Assembly: GCA_036677365.1 (NCBI GenBank)
Contig: JAVBWN010000035.1
Coordinates: 1-43,674 of the forward strand
Reading direction: 5' to 3'
Length of the DNA: 43,674 nt
DNA from: Acholeplasma sp.
GTDB taxonomy: Bacteria > Bacillota_I > Bacilli_A > Acholeplasmatales > UBA5453
Numbering within the stretch: position 1 is the first letter of the stretch; every line of letters begins with the position of its first letter. The position numbers are program-made. Positions 15,001 through 43,674 of this stretch are shown one piece after another.

Positions 15001-18000
15001 AGGTATTTGATCCTAAAGGCATCTTAAACCCAAGCAAAGTCATTTAGTCACTTATCAAGAATGATTGTGATTTACTTAGAACCTCATCATTAAAATGATG
15101 TAAAGCCCTTACATTTAGACACTTCTATGTTATAATTACTATGGTGAATTATACGATTAGATGTTTTTGAATGGGGGTTTTTATTTTATGAGTATCATGC
15201 TTAATATGCTGAAAAACAAAGAAGAACTCAGTATGGCCGAAAAGGTCGTACTCGATTATTTGATTGAACATAAAGAAGACTTAAAGGATTTTGGTATTGA
15301 AAAGATTGCTGAAGCGGCGTATACCTCCCCAGCCTCTGTCGTTAGAATGTGTAAAAAACTGGGTTATCGTGGGTTTAAGGATTTTAAGATTGATTTTATT
15401 TTAGCCAATGCAAAAGTAGAAATCCCTGAACACACCGAATATTCCGACGTCATTTTAACCAAAAAATTCAATACAGGTAAGGTTGCGATTGAAAACGACA
15501 TCCGCGTGTTAGAAGATACGATGAAACTTTATAACGAAGAAACGTATGAAAAGGCCGCTGAAATCATCATGAGCGCTCGTAAGATTCTCATCTTTGGTAA
15601 AGGCTCATCCTACATTGTTTGTAAAGATTTAGAAATGAAACTTCGCCGAATCAATAAGTTTTGTATCGCTCAAGGCGAGTCCCATGACCAGTTGGTCGAT
15701 GCGTCATTCATCAACCAAAAAGATGTGATTATATTCATCAGTAATTCAGGTAAGACCAAAGAAATCATCTCTTCAGCATTGTTGGCGAAAGAAAACAAAG
15801 CGAAGATCATTGTCATTACAAAATTAGGTTCATCGATCCTGGCGGATTTAGGTGATATCGTCATTTATACCTCTTCACTTGAAGGGGAGTTTAGAAGTGC
15901 TGCGATGACCTCGCGTATTTCTCAATTGGCGGTTGTGGATGCGTTATTCTCACATTGTGCCTATACGGATATTGACCGTTCTGTCAAAATGCTTGAAACC
16001 ACGTATCAAACATTTAAACAATTTAAACGATAAAAAACGAAGAGGTATGCTGCTAGCATACTTTTTTTGTCGCCTGGGTGATTTTTTCAATTTTGGAAAA
16101 AACAACCAAAAGACAATGAAAGCGTTTCAATTACATAGTAAAAACACTATAATGATAACGAAGATGGAGAAACGACCATGAAACTTTCAATTGGCTTAAT
16201 GAGTGGAACCTCATTGGATGGCATCGATTTGGTTCTATGTGAAATAAATGGGTCCTTTATGGATACCGAAGTGAAAGTCATTGCCCATCAATCCTATGAT
16301 TTAGACCCGGGATTGGTTTTAAAAATACAGGATTCAATTCAGTTGAAAACGAGCGCAAGAGACTTGACCAGTCTCAATTTTGAATTAGCCATTGCCTTTT
16401 CAAAGGCCATCAATACATTCATTGAAACCTTAGGGTTAGACCATAAAAACATCGATTTTATCGCTTCACATGGCCAAACCATCTACCATATACCCTTCGC
16501 AACTAAAGACCATGTTCCAAGCACATTACAGTTGGGGTCTGGGTCAGTGATTGCACAACTTACAGGCATCACGACGGTATCCAATTTTAGAGTTGCGGAT
16601 ATGGCTGTGGGGGGACAAGGGGCACCCTTGGTACCCTATGCTGAATTCGTATTATTCTCACAAAAAGAGAAGACCATCGCGATGCATAATTTAGGGGGGA
16701 TTTCGAATTTAACCCTCATGCCTAAAGGTCAGGACATCGATCAAGTGATTGCTTTTGATACAGGTCCAGCCAATATGATGATCGATTACGCGATGAAAAA
16801 ATTATTTCATCAACCTTACGATGACCAAGGCTACTACGCTTCAAGAGGTCAATTAATCCAACCATTATATGAATCATTGATGGCCCATCCGTATCTAAAA
16901 TTGGATTACCCAAAGTCCACAGGTAGAGAGATGTTTGGTGATGATTATACGCAAACATGCTTATCACCATACCCAAACGAAAAACCGGAAGACATCATCC
17001 ACACCTTATCGATGTTTACCGTAGATAGCATCGTATTAAGCTATCGAAAGTTACTAGAAAAACACACGATCGATGAAATTATCTTTTCAGGTGGCGGTGC
17101 ATTTAACCCGTTTTTGATTGAAAATATACGAAAAGGTTTGTACCCAATACAAGTATCCACACTTGAAGACCATGGTCTCGATTCAAAATGTAAAGAAGCC
17201 CTCGCTTTTGTCATTTTAGGGAACGAGACACTCCATCGTCATTTTAATCACATCAAAAGTGCCACTGGCGCGACCCGCTTAGTTGTACTGGGTGACATCA
17301 GTCCTGTCATCCGTTAGGAGAAGTATGAAACTACATTTGTATAAAAACCCAAAAGAACCCATTTTTTATTATGACACTCAAAAAGTCGTCGAAATCCCTC
17401 ATAGCATTAAAAACCATAAACCATTCAGAGCCATGTGGGTCTCGAATGTCGCGAATATTGACTTTCCAGTGTTGGACAACCCATTGGATTATCAACAAAA
17501 AATCATCACCATGCTGGATACCGCGAAATCCTATCATTTGAATGCAATCTTTTATCAAGTCAGAACAACCAATGATGCATTTTACGCCTCTAAACTCAAC
17601 CCATACAGCCGTTACTTAACGGGTAAAGAAGGGAAAGAACCACCATTCGATGTCTTGAAATTTGTCATCGATGAAGCAAAAAAACGCAACATTGAAGTTC
17701 ATGCTTGGTGTAATCCATACCGCGTATCTTTAAATGGAATCATCAAAAAAGACGATTATCTGAAAACGTGTGACCCGATGAATCTGGCGGTCAAACGTCC
17801 TGACCTCATCATTTTGAATAAAGAAGGTCAAATCATATTAAATCCTGCAAAAAAAGAAGTCAGACAACACATCATCGATTCGATGTTAGAAATCATCGAT
17901 GGGTATGAAGTGGCAGGCATTCATTTTGATGATTATTTCTACCCTTATCAAGGGTTAGATGAACAACAAAATGATTTGCCGGATTATGAACAAAGAACCG

Positions 18001-42000: not shown

Positions 42001-43674
42001 CCGATTTCCCACTTTTGACGATGAGATTATTGAATGCTGCAGAAAACATGTATGCCCAACTATTTTATACGGGTGGGCTAGACTTGGTTGGACAAGATGT
42101 ATGGGAAAATCCATTGTTCTTAGCACTCATCAGTAATGTCGCTGCCTTACTCATGATGTTGCCATTACTCATCATGTATTTATTTGTTCAAAAACAATTT
42201 GTTGAATCGATTGAAAGAACCGGCATCGTCGGTTAGGAGTTCATATGTTCATAGAAAAACCCTTTTTCCAAAAAATCAATCAAATCAGTGACTGGGTATT
42301 GCGTTTGGTGATCATCAACACGTTGGTCATTCTGACGATTTTACCCATCATCACACTCTTTTTGGGGCTATCTACCGGATACAACACCTTAAGAGACCTT
42401 TGGAGAAAAAAGGAAAAAGGGTTATTCAGAACGTATGTTAAACACTTAAAGTACCGTATTTTTCACAAACTTTTGTTGGGATTGGTGCTGGGTGTGATTA
42501 TTTTGGTGGGCTATCTCAACATGACTTATTATGTTGAACTCATCGAAACCACACCAACCTTATTCTACCAAGCAGGCTATTACATCACATTGTTCTTTGT
42601 GGTGATGATGCTTTCTGTATCATTGTATTTGTTACCCATCGTCTATGCTAAGCCTCTTTTGGGCATCAAAGCATCCATCAAATTGGCTTTTTATGTGGCG
42701 GGTAAATATATCATAAGAACAGTATTCTTGTTACTCACACCAGCATTATTGTTATTCTTGTTGCTCACCTCATTCACTTCCATGATATTTGTCTTACTTG
42801 GTGTCAGTGGTTGGTTGATGGTGATGGTTTTAATCACCGATGTGGTGGTGGATTTGGTAGAGGAGATGAATCGTCGTGATTAAATTAGGCATTGAGCAAA
42901 TCGGTCTATATCGATCGCTATTTGAAGGTAAACGTGTGGGTTTAATCACAAACCCTACAGGTGTCAATCAACAGTTCAAATCGACGATTGACATTCTCCA
43001 TGAAGTATCCACGTTGGTAGCGCTATTTTCACCAGAACACGGGGTTAGAGGTAACGTTCAAGCAGGCGTTAAATTAGACCCGTATATCGACAAAGAAACC
43101 AACGCGATGGTGTATTCACTCTATGGTGAAACCCGAAAACCAACCGAAGCGATGATGTCTGATATCGATATACTTTGTTTCGATATTCAAGATGTGGGTG
43201 CGCGATTTTACACCTATATCTACACCATGGCATTCGCATTAGAAGCATGCAAGACCTATGGCAAGAAAATGGTTGTCTTCGACAGACCGAATCCCCTTGG
43301 TGGGGTAGTTGTGGAAGGTAATCTTTTAGATTTAAACTTTAGAAGTTTTGTCGGGTACTATTCCATCCCACAACGCTATGGTTTAACCATTGGCGAACTG
43401 GCGAATTACTTTAATGATTTAGGTGATATTCACGCCGACCTCACGGTCATCTCCATGGCGGGTTATCACAGAAGTATGCATTTTAAAGACACCCAGGTGC
43501 CCTTTGTATTACCATCACCGAACATCCCGACGCCTGAAACCATTTATGCGTATATGGCGACTTGTTATTTTGAAGGAACCAACCTATCCGAAGGCAGAGG
43601 TACGACCAAACCCTTTCAAATATTTGGTGCCCCATGGTTTAATAGCAAAGCGGTTCTAGAAGCTTTAAAACCAT

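Follow-up and report, generated by a model that had tools for sequence, protein, structure and literature searches.

A predicted peptidoglycan utilisation locus of about 38 kb in a wall-less Acholeplasma

A wall-less Acholeplasma sp. carries a large gene block that is likely to be a peptidoglycan utilisation locus, with the walls of other bacteria as its sole possible substrate. The locus occupies positions 10030 to 43674 of the window (the whole stretch of 43,674 nucleotides that we analysed, contig C35), about 34 kb, and continues for a further 3.6 kb on contig C28. All steps from cleavage at the cell surface to fructose-6-phosphate are encoded, as judged by Pfam and NCBIfam matches. Because the host has no wall synthesis, a locus for MurNAc and anhydro-MurNAc can act only on foreign peptidoglycan; the initial annotation had stated that the genes must serve this use, which we infer from the sequence. 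Its core reading, the catabolism of MurNAc from the walls of others, survived every in silico test that we ran, and each gene it had named is an intact open reading frame in its place (Pfam, NCBIfam cut-offs). The locus extends further, and reaches back further in time, than had been proposed.

We found no description of this locus in the literature, where MurNAc use by wall-less Spiroplasma is already published. What is new is a polymer-degrading locus of ~38 kb in a wall-less host; the MurNAc pathway itself is known. The locus offers a genetic explanation for wall-less microbes thriving on dead bacterial biomass: in RNA stable-isotope probing (SIP) of pig slurry, early assimilation of dead E. 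coli labelled with 13C is reported to have been due mainly to Acholeplasma (PMC4628116).

Extent, conservation and assembly of the locus

The conserved block begins with the gene for a NAGPA-domain protein at 10030, not at 15161 as initially annotated, and the GH18 gene that had been taken as its far end lies outside it, being part of the block in none of four closed genomes. Over ~38 kb the block is collinear in all four closed relatives, which represent two orders. In 7 of 15 related loci the NAGPA gene immediately precedes the lct genes. In three of the four closed genomes its next neighbour is lctB or, in G049, where lct genes are absent, the regulator. L026 has it some 2.4 kb upstream, and L028, L030 and G180 have a homologue upstream on the opposite strand. 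Every open reading frame of the locus (Table 1) is intact and of full length relative to its orthologues. For the five genes tested against a relative that is 92-100% identical, dN/dS was 0.03-0.07 (0.069 for anmK, 0.034-0.039 for the lct genes), which points to upkeep of the block by selection. Among the 151 genomes sampled, AnmK is found in 31, each of which encodes MurQ and GHL10 as well, and the distance from AnmK to MurQ is ~27-36 kb in closed or near-closed relatives, compared with ~30.4 kb here once the contigs are joined.

Table 1. Features of the locus, the nag genes and the GH18 gene outside the conserved block. Positions refer to the window unless preceded by C28; cut-offs follow the scores in brackets.
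Feature	Position	Strand	Evidence
nagB	5901-6686	-	TIGR00502 274.8 (236.9); Pfam
nagA	6628-7773	-	TIGR00221 310 (225.65); Pfam
NAGPA-domain (phosphodiester glycosidase) protein, secreted	10030-11616	+	Pfam PF09992 1.9e-35
lctB (EtfB)	11660-12451	+	Pfam ETF
lctC (EtfA)	12461-13663	+	PDB 7qh2_A LctC 3.3e-126; Pfam ETF
lctD (FAD lactate dehydrogenase)	13656-15047	+	PDB 7qh2_C LctD 8.3e-172, full length
MurR/RpiR-family regulator (HTH_6 + SIS)	15161-16033	+	Pfam; NCBIfam MurR/RpiR family best, 158 bits
Conserved A-rich motif, core GAAAAAACAACC	16091-16112	+	~40 nt upstream of TATAAT box before anmK
anmK, 1,6-anhydro-MurNAc kinase	16178-17317	+	Pfam 1.8e-92; NCBIfam NF007142 475.4 (435)
GHL10a, single-domain, Cwp19-like	17283-18545	+	PDB 5oq2 Cwp19 2.4e-81
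GHL10b, 1236 aa, two GHL10 domains	18542-22252	+	Pfam GHL10, two stretches, 7.3e-118
Beta-lactamase-fold protein (serine S-x-x-K), cytoplasmic	22249-23289	+	Pfam PF00144 2.4e-41
Lipoprotein, Big_2 x5 + C-terminal Amidase_2	23271-26513	+	Pfam; lipobox L-S-A-C
Ig-like exported protein, 803 aa, signal + C-terminal anchor	26658-29069	+	Pfam Bact_surface_Ig-like; hydropathy
Ig-like lipoprotein, 520 aa	29275-30837	+	Pfam Bact_surface_Ig-like; lipobox
Solute-binding protein, 968 aa, membrane-anchored, long N-terminal extension	30904-33810	+	Pfam SBP_bac_8/SBP_bac_1
First permease pair	33822-34754, 34747-35622	+	Pfam BPD_transp_1
TPR/NHL protein, exported	35634-37100	+	Pfam
Yip1-family membrane protein	37012-37731	+	Pfam
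DUF5696 protein, membrane-anchored	37744-40308	+	Pfam
Second permease pair	40310-41236, 41205-42236	+	Pfam; order conserved
DUF624 membrane protein	42245-42883	+	Pfam; order conserved
namZ, 5' part, 266 codons	42876-43674	+	NamZ_N 4.6e-83; NamZ_C positions 2-42; PDB 4k05 2.4e-69
namZ, 3' part	C28:14944-14720	-	NamZ_C positions 84-152
GH3, nagZ-type	C28:14730-13162	-	Pfam 3.7e-92; NCBIfam GH3 beta-N-acetylhexosaminidase 212.8 (207)
BadF-type sugar kinase (BadF/BadG ATPase)	C28:13169-12258	-	Pfam
murQ	C28:12253-11354	-	Pfam SIS/MurQ; TIGR00274 381.3 (302)
GH18	C28:8378-10318	-	Pfam

The proposed join of C35 and C28 inside namZ is borne out by domain content and gene order. Genome-wide there is one NamZ_N match and there are exactly two NamZ_C pieces, complementary and each at a contig end, and GH3, BadF and MurQ follow directly after NamZ in four of four closed relatives. 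The pieces are not strictly the two halves of the gene, as they had been called, because alignment to five full-length relatives (L006, L007, L010, L012 and L015; two more loci gave no row) leaves a 40-residue gap, or ~120 bp (40 codons) of unassembled sequence. Contigs from four other runs extend beyond the end of the window, one of them in frame with a peptide that resembles the homologues.

Sequencing runs labelled sludge, bioreactor or wastewater contain near-identical DNA (at least 99% over 12.8 kb). Among these runs are RNA libraries from two studies, in which the presence of a contig does not prove transcription.

Predicted route from foreign wall to fructose-6-phosphate

To judge from their families and anchoring, the double-GHL10 enzyme (GHL10b) and the Amidase_2 lipoprotein would attack peptidoglycan outside the cell, the amidase stripping peptides and the GHL10 enzyme cutting the glycan to leave 1,6-anhydro-MurNAc ends. 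Hydropathy marks GHL10b as a surface protein, with a signal or anchor at the N-terminus and a membrane anchor at the C-terminus; its two domains lie at 18686-19627 and 20918-21877. The Amidase_2 domain aligns with that of XlyA (3hmb, 3.8e-25) and retains the His, His and Cys (metal-ligand) positions of the aligned motifs; we classify the lipoprotein by homology as a surface N-acetylmuramoyl-L-alanine amidase. Such enzymes would be harmless to their host because the cell has no wall. Throughout the locus, and in the orthologues, these lytic enzymes have an N-terminal signal, a lipobox or a membrane anchor, and the exo-glycosidases and kinases have none, as judged from hydropathy and lipobox motifs rather than with a trained predictor.

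The NAGPA-domain, DUF5696, TPR/NHL and Ig-like proteins may assist at the surface. A hydrophobic N-terminal signal is present in the NAGPA-domain protein and in four of four orthologues; its PDB matches are distant (3ohg, 5.7e-13; NAGPA 6pku, 1.3e-05), and one might speculate that it strips phosphodiester-linked polymers off MurNAc O6. The Ig-like pair, kept in all four closed genomes with the lipobox conserved in four of four orthologues, possibly binds substrate. For DUF5696, a search for solved sequence relatives found none, and an atlas match to GH101/GH129/GH31-like clusters (0.87-0.90), to be read as a lead only, makes a glycoside hydrolase possible. The TPR/NHL, Yip1 and DUF5696 genes are collinear in four of four closed genomes. 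About a third of the block (the DUF5696, TPR/NHL, Yip1, DUF624, two Ig-like and NAGPA proteins and the N-terminal half of the binding protein) has no assigned function, which leaves room for a main substrate that is broader than peptidoglycan or is something else.

Oligosaccharide-type ABC importers, built from a single large binding protein and two pairs of permeases, would presumably carry wall fragments into the cell. The locus contains no ABC ATPase gene, and the ATPase would come from elsewhere in the genome, which has two of MalK type (C1:25416 and C15:37981). Solved relatives of the binding domain are distant (best 5ysb, 1.9e-08), marking it as generically oligosaccharide-type with no substrate given by homology.

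Inside the cell, GHL10a, the NagZ-type GH3 enzyme and NamZ, all without export signals, would dismantle the fragments. GHL10a probably starts at the ATG at 17325; its N-terminus is not hydrophobic, here or in four of four orthologues, and lacks a signal peptide. We predict that it cleaves glycan in the cytoplasm, and it may be a lytic transglycosylase. NamZ is a predicted cytoplasmic exo-beta-N-acetylmuramidase (GH171). The beta-lactamase-fold protein lacks a signal here and in three of four orthologues (the start in G180 was probably misread upstream). B. subtilis AmiE has a beta-lactamase fold, and our protein could be either an AmiE-like MurNAc-peptide amidase or a stem-peptide D-peptidase. 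Comparison with NCBIfam and PDB found no characterised close relative: the best NCBIfam model, PBP4B, scores 129 against a cut-off of 385, and the best PDB match, 4gdn Flp (4.2e-12), aligns at S-L-T-K. The labels "AmiE-like" and "MurK-like" of the initial annotation hold at the family level only; the BadF-type kinase scores equally against hexokinase and MurNAc/GlcNAc kinase.

AnmK, predicted to be cytoplasmic and without a hydrophobic N-terminal segment, would convert anhydro-MurNAc to MurNAc-6-P. The GHL10 domain of Cwp19 is reported to act as a lytic transglycosylase, with 1,6-anhydro-MurNAc or 1,6-anhydro-muropeptides as products (PMC6016235), and a Cwp19-like enzyme making the substrate of AnmK would explain why the anmK gene is in the locus. 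The BadF-type kinase would phosphorylate free MurNAc, GlcNAc or both, and MurQ would produce GlcNAc-6-P and D-lactate. NagA and NagB would take the last two steps, from GlcNAc-6-P through GlcN-6-P to fructose-6-P. Their genes, which the initial annotation had placed at 5.9-7.8 kb of C35, both score above curated cut-offs and here lie apart from the block; nagB directly follows murQ in G049, G079 and G180, and in G007 the nagB/nagA pair is found ~4.5 kb downstream, in the opposite orientation.

By sequence, LctBCD is classed as an electron-confurcating lactate dehydrogenase/Etf complex. It probably oxidises the D-lactate freed by MurQ to pyruvate, as its conserved neighbourhood in two gene arrangements suggests: of 15 related loci, 12 have lctB, lctC and lctD upstream of the regulator, another shows the tail of lctD and two break off at contig ends, and in G034 the lct genes lie directly downstream of murQ. 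Three of the four closed genomes have lct genes. The D-lactate stereospecificity of LctD is given in the literature as likely only, and we came upon no published link between LctBCD and MurQ, though no search was aimed at one.

The MurR/RpiR-type regulator, with its sugar-phosphate-binding SIS domain, may control the set. Its NCBIfam score is below equivalog cut-offs, and it is the most conserved protein of the block (72-88% identity across loci, compared with 45-56% for AnmK in the same loci). The A-rich motif before anmK hardly varies across all 13 intergenic regions that were aligned and is a candidate operator or activator site. It has a single exact copy in the window, where 0.88 matches with at most one mismatch are expected by chance, and none on C28.

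Wall synthesis, distribution and alternative readings

In this genome (completeness 99.86%, contamination 0.67%), a profile search found no match to any of five wall-synthesis families: PBP transpeptidase, FtsW/RodA, MurB_C, GT51 and MraY. One MurG-type match fell below threshold (20.7 against 26.2 bits), and the sole Mur_ligase_M gene is FolC (TIGR01499, 372.3 against 162.65). The counts initially reported, zero for PBP, FtsW/RodA and MurB with a single Mur-ligase-domain gene, were thus reproduced, as were those for the family (PBP in 0 of 22 genomes, AnmK in 11 of 22). PBP is absent from 29 of 31 AnmK-positive genomes in the sample of the first order and from 13 of 13 in the second, 42 of 44 together, and the family with the most PBP-bearing genomes in the sample has AnmK in 0 of 61.

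The walled relative G034, which bears PBP, carries most of the locus, and about half of the family's wall-less genomes, like about half of the genus, lack it. The locus is thus not confined to wall-less cells, nor do such cells need it, and losses must occur. Because G034 carries most of its genes, the locus probably predates wall loss and was then kept. The LctD gene tree is sorted by taxon label with support of 100/100, implying that wall-less lineages have long retained the gene.

The surface lytic transglycosylase and amidase could instead be a weapon that lyses living neighbours for their cytoplasmic contents, wall-sugar catabolism being a by-product. We regard this as unlikely, even though large lytic enzymes are indeed anchored on the surface of a cell immune to them: most of the locus would serve to take up wall sugars and break them down, the lactyl group included, and our analysis identified no adhesion or contact-killing genes. 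The outer membrane of Gram-negative bacteria, moreover, would shield the wall of such prey. Acholeplasma is described as the fastest assimilator of bacterial biomass in the SIP study, but the substrate there is given as heat-killed cells, not live prey (PMC4628116). A weapon and the use of foreign peptidoglycan are compatible, and differ in whether live cells are targets.

Less probable still is that another N-acetylhexosamine polymer (chitin, host or algal glycans, exopolysaccharide) is the target and the MurNAc enzymes a minor side branch. GH18, GH3, NagA and NagB would also suit chitin or glycan use, the weak atlas lead for DUF5696 points to other glycosidases, and the binding protein is only generically of oligosaccharide type. 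Against this, AnmK, MurQ, NamZ, Amidase_2 and the Cwp19-type GHL10 are specific to MurNAc or peptidoglycan and pass cut-offs or match characterised proteins, AnmK, MurQ and GHL10 are found together in 31 of 31 genomes, and GH18 lies outside the conserved block.

Two further readings are very improbable. A leftover recycling system of a walled ancestor, functionless and heading for loss, would fit both the similar locus of PBP-bearing G034 and the patchy distribution, but is already disfavoured by the intact reading frames, the low dN/dS, the LctD tree and the lack of AnmK in the family richest in PBP. Equally remote is an anabolic role, in which the cell is not truly wall-less and builds some wall from salvaged muropeptides; MurNAc scavenging is described as able to feed wall synthesis in Tannerella forsythia, and scavenged muropeptides have been raised for partial-pathway lineages of these orders (PMC10868615), but a nearly complete genome has no PBP, SEDS, GT51, MraY, MurB or Mur ligase and only a sub-threshold MurG-type match, PBP is absent throughout the family, and MurQ, NagA and NagB would send the sugar to glycolysis, not to UDP-MurNAc.

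Comparison with known systems

Among the closest known systems is the murQ-murR-murP-amiE-nagZ-namZ operon of B. subtilis for peptidoglycan recycling and MurNAc catabolism (PMC8054146), with which the locus shares NamZ, a GH3 NagZ, MurQ, a MurR-type regulator, a MurNAc-peptide amidase function and the course from exo-lytic breakdown through MurNAc-6-P to GlcNAc-6-P. There, NagZ, AmiE and NamZ are reported to be secreted and MurNAc to enter through the PTS transporter MurP (PMC8054146); in the Acholeplasma, no export signal is seen in NamZ, GH3 or the beta-lactamase-fold protein and ABC importers would handle uptake, so that fragments would be dismantled inside the cell, unlike in B. subtilis. 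Our locus further has AnmK, three GHL10 domains, a surface Amidase_2, LctBCD and ~12 kb of genes without assigned function, in a host with no wall to recycle.

Tannerella forsythia (NamZ1/2, MurT, MurK, MurQ) is likewise described as using wall material of its neighbours through NamZ-type exo-muramidases, a BadF-type MurNAc kinase and MurQ. It is walled and directs MurNAc to its own wall, whereas the Acholeplasma has no anabolic route and would only burn the sugar; the transporters differ, as does the link to AnmK, GHL10 and LctBCD. The murP-murQ pair of Spiroplasma likewise gives a wall-less bacterium genes for MurNAc uptake and use, so the principle of a wall-less cell eating wall sugar is already published (PMC3971584). 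That module is described as a transporter and an etherase for free MurNAc only, in contrast to a ~38-kb block with surface wall-lytic enzymes, oligosaccharide importers, an anhydro-MurNAc branch, lactate oxidation and predicted polymer degradation.

Single components have relatives in other settings. Cwp19 of Clostridioides difficile shares the catalytic domain (5oq2) and, as reported, forms 1,6-anhydro-MurNAc, the substrate of AnmK, but is an autolysin whose CWB2 repeats bind the wall of its own cell (PMC6016235); of the two proteins here, one is anchored in the membrane of a cell without a wall and the second has no export signal, which would be unusual for a lytic transglycosylase. Ldh-EtfAB of Acetobacterium woodii (LctBCD; PDB 7qh2) matches our LctD and LctC over their full length, with EtfB alongside. 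The A. woodii complex is reported to serve growth on free lactate (PMC9232219), whereas its counterpart here lies within a wall-sugar locus, beside the regulator or murQ.

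Wall synthesis and the extent of the gene block

The genome, 1.97 Mb in 37 contigs of which the window is the complete contig C35, has a completeness of 99.86% and a contamination of 0.67%. In family searches of this genome, PBP transpeptidase, FtsW/RodA (SEDS), MurB_C, GT51 transglycosylase and MraY gave no match, and the MurG-type family gave a single one below its cut-off (20.7 against 26.2 bits). The only gene with a Mur-ligase domain is FolC (TIGR01499, 372.3 against a cut-off of 162.65). Each family was recovered in 10-13 of 14 control genomes, and the five without a match here in 10-12 of them; the search set left out MurA, Ddl and MurJ. 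As the initial annotation had claimed, this near-complete genome holds no machinery for peptidoglycan synthesis, and the organism is wall-less by that measure.

Genes were taken as long reading frames under table 11 and assigned to families by Pfam; every gene listed in the initial annotation was found again with Pfam and NCBIfam. From the regulator to the contig end all genes lie on one strand, mostly overlapping or a few bases apart. The continuation lies on a second contig, C28. Export was judged by hydropathy and lipobox inspection only.

Features of the locus and its surroundings (window coordinates unless a contig or related locus is named)
Feature	Position	Strand	Assignment	Export feature
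tRNA genes (four in all)	3968-4142; 5187-5258; C28 3454-3534	-; +; -	Rfam	
nagA, nagB	5901-7773	-	NCBIfam	
440-aa protein with NAT_N, GNAT_C and acetyltransferase domains	7958-9280, between nagA and block			
209-aa ORF	9408-10037, between nagA and block		no family match	
NAGPA-domain protein				signal
Promoter-like site before regulator	15108-15136			
RpiR/SIS regulator	15161-16033	+	Pfam	
Terminator-like hairpin	16045-16069			
A-rich motif upstream of anmK	16091-16112			
TATAAT	16148-16153			
AnmK	after regulator	+	PF03702 1.8e-92	
GHL10a, single GHL10 domain	17283-18545	+	PF02638 1.8e-66	
GHL10b, 1236 aa, two GHL10 domains	after GHL10a	+	PF02638 7.3e-118	N-terminal signal, C-terminal anchor
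Beta-lactamase-fold protein	after GHL10b	+	Pfam	
1080-aa protein, five Big_2 and one Amidase_2 domain	after beta-lactamase-fold gene	+	Pfam	lipobox
Promoter-like site before 803-aa gene	26592-26620			
Ig-like protein, 803 aa	after Big_2/amidase	+	Pfam	signal, C-terminal anchor
Ig-like protein, 520 aa	after Big_2/amidase	+	Pfam	lipobox, kept in 4 of 4 orthologues
Solute-binding protein, 968 aa	after Ig-like genes	+	Pfam	N-terminal anchor
Two permeases	after Ig-like genes	+	Pfam	
TPR/NHL protein	after first permeases	+	Pfam	signal
Yip1 membrane protein	after first permeases	+	Pfam	
DUF5696 protein, 854 aa	after first permeases	+	Pfam	N-terminal anchor
Two further permeases, DUF624 protein, NamZ 5' part (266 codons)	contig end	+	Pfam	
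NamZ 3' part (74 codons), GH3, BadF/BadG-type ATPase, SIS protein	C28 end	-	Pfam	
Weak GNAT-like gene, 304 aa, adjoining murQ	C28 10421-11335	+		
GH18 lipoprotein, weak EndoS-type TIM-barrel match	C28 8378-10318	-	Pfam	lipobox
Fragment with IS605 OrfB-type helix-turn-helix domain	C28 3-467, the contig's other end	-		
BadF-type kinase and GH4 pair of a relative	L022:11149-13439			
BadF-type kinase and GH4 pair of G034	L048:4588-6857			
MupG of G034	L048 (G034:C3) 1705-2751	-		

We compared 29 proteins by tblastn with 15 loci fetched with AnmK, labelled as metagenome-assembled genomes of Acholeplasmatales, Acholeplasmataceae, Tenericutes, Bacillota and Izemoplasmatales, and with four closed genomes. 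The block is collinear in the related loci and the closed genomes, in the order NAGPA, EtfB, EtfA, FAD-dependent dehydrogenase, regulator, AnmK, GHL10a, GHL10b, beta-lactamase fold, Big_2/amidase, two Ig-like proteins, binding protein, two permeases, TPR/NHL, Yip1, DUF5696, two permeases, DUF624, NamZ, GH3, kinase and MurQ, then usually NagB. The initial annotation had run the locus from the regulator to the GH18 gene. The genes it named are present, but the block begins at position 10030, and the GH18 gene lies outside it in all four closed genomes.

The content of the block varies at a few points. G049, one of the closed genomes, has neither the Etf/dehydrogenase genes nor the Big_2 amidase. 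Many relatives carry an extra BadF-type kinase and an NAD-dependent GH4 glycosidase between anmK and the GHL10a gene; in G034, a relative with both AnmK and PBP, the pair follows lctD, and this genome is without it. The GNAT-like gene beside murQ has homologues within the locus elsewhere, between EtfA and LctD in two related loci (L032 and L033, 31-32% identity) and beside the GHL10 genes in G034 (33%). The gene recurs as part of the locus, and its product might re-acetylate de-N-acetylated wall sugars. Rfam detected no RNA family in the locus, and the four tRNA genes were its sole matches in the window and C28.

Two contig ends within namZ

The ends of C35 and C28 carry the first 266 and the last 74 codons of namZ. 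Pfam places NamZ_N (4.6e-83) and NamZ_C profile positions 2-42 on C35 and NamZ_C positions 84-152 on C28; genome-wide there is one NamZ_N match and exactly two NamZ_C pieces, each at a contig end. The two-domain architecture, a catalytic domain at the N-terminus with an auxiliary one at the C-terminus, is thus present across both contigs, with an unassembled gap of 40 residues as measured in an alignment with five full-length relatives of 381-383 residues (from L006, L007, L010, L012 and L015). In G007, a closed genome from this genus, the segments corresponding to C35:10155-43648 and C28:14752-13105 are collinear and about 120 bp apart, and in four of four closed genomes GH3, the BadF-type kinase and MurQ come immediately after NamZ. 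Contigs from four other public runs overshoot the last base of the window by 192, 1429, 5302 and 676 bases. In one of these extensions the initial 30 letters keep the namZ frame, and the encoded peptide agrees with the relatives there. No repeat that would account for the assembly break was found at either of the two contig ends. The join claimed in the initial annotation is sound; strictly, the ends do not abut, and about 120 bp between them are missing from the assembly.

NamZ matches PDB 4k05 at 2.4e-69. Its P-E-H-G and E-G-R-G-T-T motifs align with 4k05 and are invariant among the relatives. For the B. subtilis enzyme, in its own numbering, the accessible part of PMC8054146 names conserved Glu92 and Arg279 as the putative active site.

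Regulation, and the proposed route of wall lysis and muramic acid breakdown

The regulator combines HTH_6 and SIS domains and scores below the equivalog cut-offs of MurR/RpiR (PRK11337, 158 against 378) and MurR (PRK15482, 100.6 against 408); by sequence it belongs to the RpiR/MurR family, short of equivalog level. Across two orders it retains 72-88% identity, against 45-56% for AnmK and 46-60% for DUF5696, and such conservation above that of the neighbouring enzymes is unusual for a regulator. An A-rich motif upstream of anmK (core GAAAAAACAACC) is near-invariant in all 13 of the 13 loci aligned; except in the near-identical L020, the AnmK proteins of these loci share 47-56% identity with this one. 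A TATAAT and a terminator-like hairpin lie around the motif, which may be the regulator's operator or an activator site. The window holds one exact copy, its three copies with one mismatch fall within genes, and none occurs on C28, so that nothing here speaks for a regulon. A promoter and terminator scan did not rise above chance (44 promoter-like sites against 52 expected), and the promoter-like sites before the regulator and the 803-aa gene are taken as hints only.

All three GHL10 domains of the genome sit in the locus. GHL10a, a member of the GHL10 family, matches PDB 5oq2, the Cwp19 protein of C. difficile, at 2.4e-81; the structural comparison covers this protein. According to the accessible part of PMC6016235, the Cwp19 GHL10 domain is a lytic transglycosylase that yields 1,6-anhydro-muropeptides. 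AnmK acts on such a product after GlcNAc and peptide have been removed from it, which would account for AnmK in the locus. The Amidase_2 domain (PF01510, 5.5e-18) aligns with XlyA, an N-acetylmuramoyl-L-alanine amidase (3hmb, 3.8e-25), and keeps the His of V-H-x-T-A-N and the His and Cys of H...S-G-K-x-C-P, positions that we take to be zinc ligands. In the beta-lactamase-fold protein S-x-x-K is present, and the best NCBIfam match is PBP4B, below cut-off (129 against 385).

A lenient Pfam scan gave nothing usable for DUF5696, the 803-aa Ig-like protein, TPR/NHL, the N-terminal half of the binding protein or the GNAT-like protein. For DUF5696, aligned in 31 sequences, the atlas offered a weak lead only; for the NAGPA-domain protein it returned only the protein's own family, and the solved relatives are distant. 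Those of the binding protein are too distant for naming a substrate.

A hydrophobic N-terminus is absent from the regulator, AnmK, GHL10a, the beta-lactamase-fold protein, NamZ, GH3, the kinase and MurQ. The same holds for orthologues in four closed genomes, the regulator and kinase having been checked in this genome only; the one exception, the beta-lactamase-fold protein of G180, probably reflects a wrong upstream start. GHL10a is without an export signal here and in four of four orthologues, and a cytoplasmic enzyme cleaving peptidoglycan glycan, as predicted for it, would be unusual. B. subtilis secretes NagZ, AmiE and NamZ and takes up free MurNAc through a PTS (PMC8054146, accessible part), whereas here GH3, NamZ and the beta-lactamase-fold protein, a possible counterpart of AmiE, carry no export signals. 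This layout points to an uptake of oligosaccharides that are then degraded within the cell. The locus itself encodes no ABC ATPase, and two MalK-type ATPases are encoded elsewhere in the genome. In Bacillus, one such ATPase is shared among sugar importers.

AnmK covers PF03702 profile positions 3-366 of 367 and exceeds the cut-offs of NF007142 (475.4 against 435) and NF007148 (428.1 against 387), which predicts a full-length enzyme at equivalog level. For MurQ the initial score of 380.9 bits was reproduced, and TIGR00274 matched at 381.3 against 302 over profile positions 2-290 of 291, again a full-length equivalog match. NagA (310 against 225.65) and NagB (274.8 against 236.9) pass their NCBIfam cut-offs. 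GH3, whose N-terminal domain matches Pfam at 3.7e-92, passes as a beta-N-acetylhexosaminidase by a narrow margin (NF003740, 212.8 against 207). The BadF-type kinase (Pfam, 1.5e-23) matches the hexokinase 2e2n (8.4e-17) and the MurNAc/GlcNAc kinase 8zo3 (4.1e-16) about equally, and falls short of NagK_SO3507 (79.1 against 370).

MurQ converts MurNAc-6-P to GlcNAc-6-P and D-lactate. It is termed a lactyl ether hydrolase in the accessible part of the B. subtilis paper (PMC8054146). Near the start of the block, three adjacent genes encode a predicted EtfB/EtfA/FAD lactate dehydrogenase, LctBCD: LctD matches its A. woodii counterpart over its full length (7qh2_C, 8.3e-172, 575.3 bits, residues 2-462), EtfA matches LctC (7qh2_A, 3.3e-126, 424.5 bits), and EtfB is assigned by Pfam. 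By electron confurcation the A. woodii complex oxidises lactate while it reduces NAD+, as the accessible text of PMC9232219 describes. In 12 of 15 related loci the three lct genes directly precede the regulator; a further locus has the tail of lctD, and two are cut by contig ends. In G034 they stand instead directly downstream of murQ in one gene run, DUF624, NamZ, GH3, kinase, AnmK, MurQ, EtfB, EtfA, LctD, GH4, kinase, DUF4097 protein and MupG. Since the linkage of lct and murQ survives this rearrangement, we propose that LctBCD oxidises the D-lactate freed by MurQ; the accessible part of PMC13411273 treats LctBCD as a likely D-lactate route. The last gene of the run, MupG (6-phospho-N-acetylmuramidase), closes a compact MurNAc operon in G034.

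Distribution, retention and possible trophic meaning

We counted AnmK and PBP in 151 genomes of the order, in five families of which f1 includes this genome.

AnmK and PBP by family (genomes with a match of genomes sampled)
Family	AnmK	PBP
f1	11/22	0/22
f2	0/61	37/61
f3	19/61	1/61
f4	0/5	2/5
f5	1/2	2/2
Total	31/151	42/151

The recount for f1 returned the figures of the initial annotation for both proteins. MurQ and GHL10 accompany AnmK in all 31 carriers, 29 of which have no PBP; AnmK and PBP occur together only in G034 and G057. A second order, to which the genome with the Izemoplasmatales-titled locus belongs, was sampled as well: 13 of 101 genomes have AnmK and one, a non-carrier, has a PBP above cut-off. 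Five more carriers, reached through their loci, have no PBP. The genomes are related rather than independent, so these counts describe a pattern and do not test it. The locus is missing from half of the family and from 5 of 10 genomes of the genus, this one counted, and is in that sense an accessory trait.

In the walled relative G034 (80% complete, three PBP matches) a single contig carries the greater part of the locus, namely two GHL10 genes, the binding protein, both pairs of permeases, TPR/NHL, Yip1, DUF5696, NamZ, GH3, the kinase, AnmK, MurQ and LctBCD. Homologues of the beta-lactamase-fold and Big_2-amidase proteins were not found on that contig. Wall-less cells therefore did not invent the locus; inheritance followed by retention after wall loss is more likely, with a wall-catabolic system outlasting the wall itself.

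Several observations bear on how it was kept. The reading frames are intact and align with their orthologues over nearly their full length, and dN/dS against a relative at 92-100% protein identity is 0.035 for NAGPA, 0.034 for EtfB, 0.035 for EtfA, 0.039 for LctD and 0.069 for AnmK. In the LctD tree, the rows with Acholeplasma-type labels and those of families f1 and f3 form one clade (100/100) with the Izemoplasmatales-labelled rows outside; a weaker agreement comes from the AnmK tree (89/83), in which one long branch is an exception. Such a pattern is in keeping with vertical retention over a long time rather than with recent transfer. The GC content of the locus (10030-43674 and C28:11354-14944) is 0.410-0.417 against 0.383 for the genome, a level reached by 2.8% of 217 windows of 33 kb. 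Horizontal transfer is not claimed, since GC stays within the genome's range and the gene trees sort by taxon label.

Near-identical DNA (at least 99% over 12.8 kb) occurs in the contigs of four runs, each belonging to a different study; two of these runs are RNA libraries, and 76-77% of sampled words were found in four RNA-library runs. For expression of the locus this is weak evidence, as such contigs do not prove transcription. Habitat labels of the other runs (sediment, activated sludge, plastic, groundwater, algae) are recorded here and not counted as evidence.

The central claim of the initial annotation, that the locus scavenges wall sugars of other bacteria, is supported. The limits of the locus change, a proposed mechanism for the AnmK branch and a proposed lactate link are added, and one walled relative shares the locus. 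The core enzymes are all of known families, and the logic of the pathway is that of known MurNAc catabolism. What is new is how large and how conserved the block is in wall-less lineages, the predicted breakdown in the cytoplasm with a GHL10 enzyme that has no export signal, the LctBCD link, and the placing of a set of conserved uncharacterised proteins in a pathway.

In print, MurNAc use by a wall-less bacterium is represented by murP and murQ of Spiroplasma (PMC3971584, accessible part). The source for the B. subtilis operon and for NamZ is PMC8054146; the words Tenericutes and Mollicutes are absent from the accessible part of its account of NamZ distribution. In the open-access literature, supplements aside, we found no description of the locus, or of AnmK, MurQ or NamZ, in Acholeplasmatales or Izemoplasmatales; the accessible parts of PMC7761423, PMC10868615, PMC7301438, PMC11720521, PMC9636832, PMC4221730, PMC11122141 and PMC7511781 contain nothing on the locus in these taxa. 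The Peloplasma paper among them (PMC11122141) suggests a use of necromass in general terms and, in its accessible part, does not name wall degradation.

It is possible, and in our judgement somewhat unlikely, that free-living wall-less Bacilli of two orders (Acholeplasmatales/Acholeplasmataceae and Izemoplasmatales) are specialised peptidoglycan eaters for which wall loss opened a trophic niche. A cell without a wall could display a lytic transglycosylase and an amidase on its bare membrane without self-harm. It would import the glycan oligomers and finish their cleavage in the cytoplasm, where an intracellular GHL10 enzyme would be coupled to AnmK, and would recover the lactyl ether of MurNAc as well through the confurcating LctBCD. 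With these surface enzymes the cell may, in addition, lyse Gram-positive neighbours that are alive.

Peptidoglycan is a large, slowly degraded pool of necromass, and its consumers in anoxic sludge and sediment are poorly known. In aerated pig slurry, RNA stable-isotope probing showed that 13C-labelled heat-killed E. coli was assimilated early on predominantly by Acholeplasma (PMC4628116); the accessible part of that paper discusses peptides and nucleosides, does not contain the word peptidoglycan and does not consider the wall as a substrate. The locus offers a concrete, testable genetic basis for this result. It also supplies objects for study: predicted surface wall-lytic enzymes that lack a wall-binding context, a lytic transglycosylase that may be cytoplasmic, a so far unstudied importer of oligosaccharides, and a new, proposed metabolic link from MurQ-derived D-lactate to LctBCD. 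The conserved DUF5696, NAGPA-domain and TPR/NHL proteins now have a place in a defined pathway. Closed genomes of two orders carry the locus and may include cultured strains, and a homologue of DUF5696 is present in Mariniplasma anaerobium, a named cultured species.
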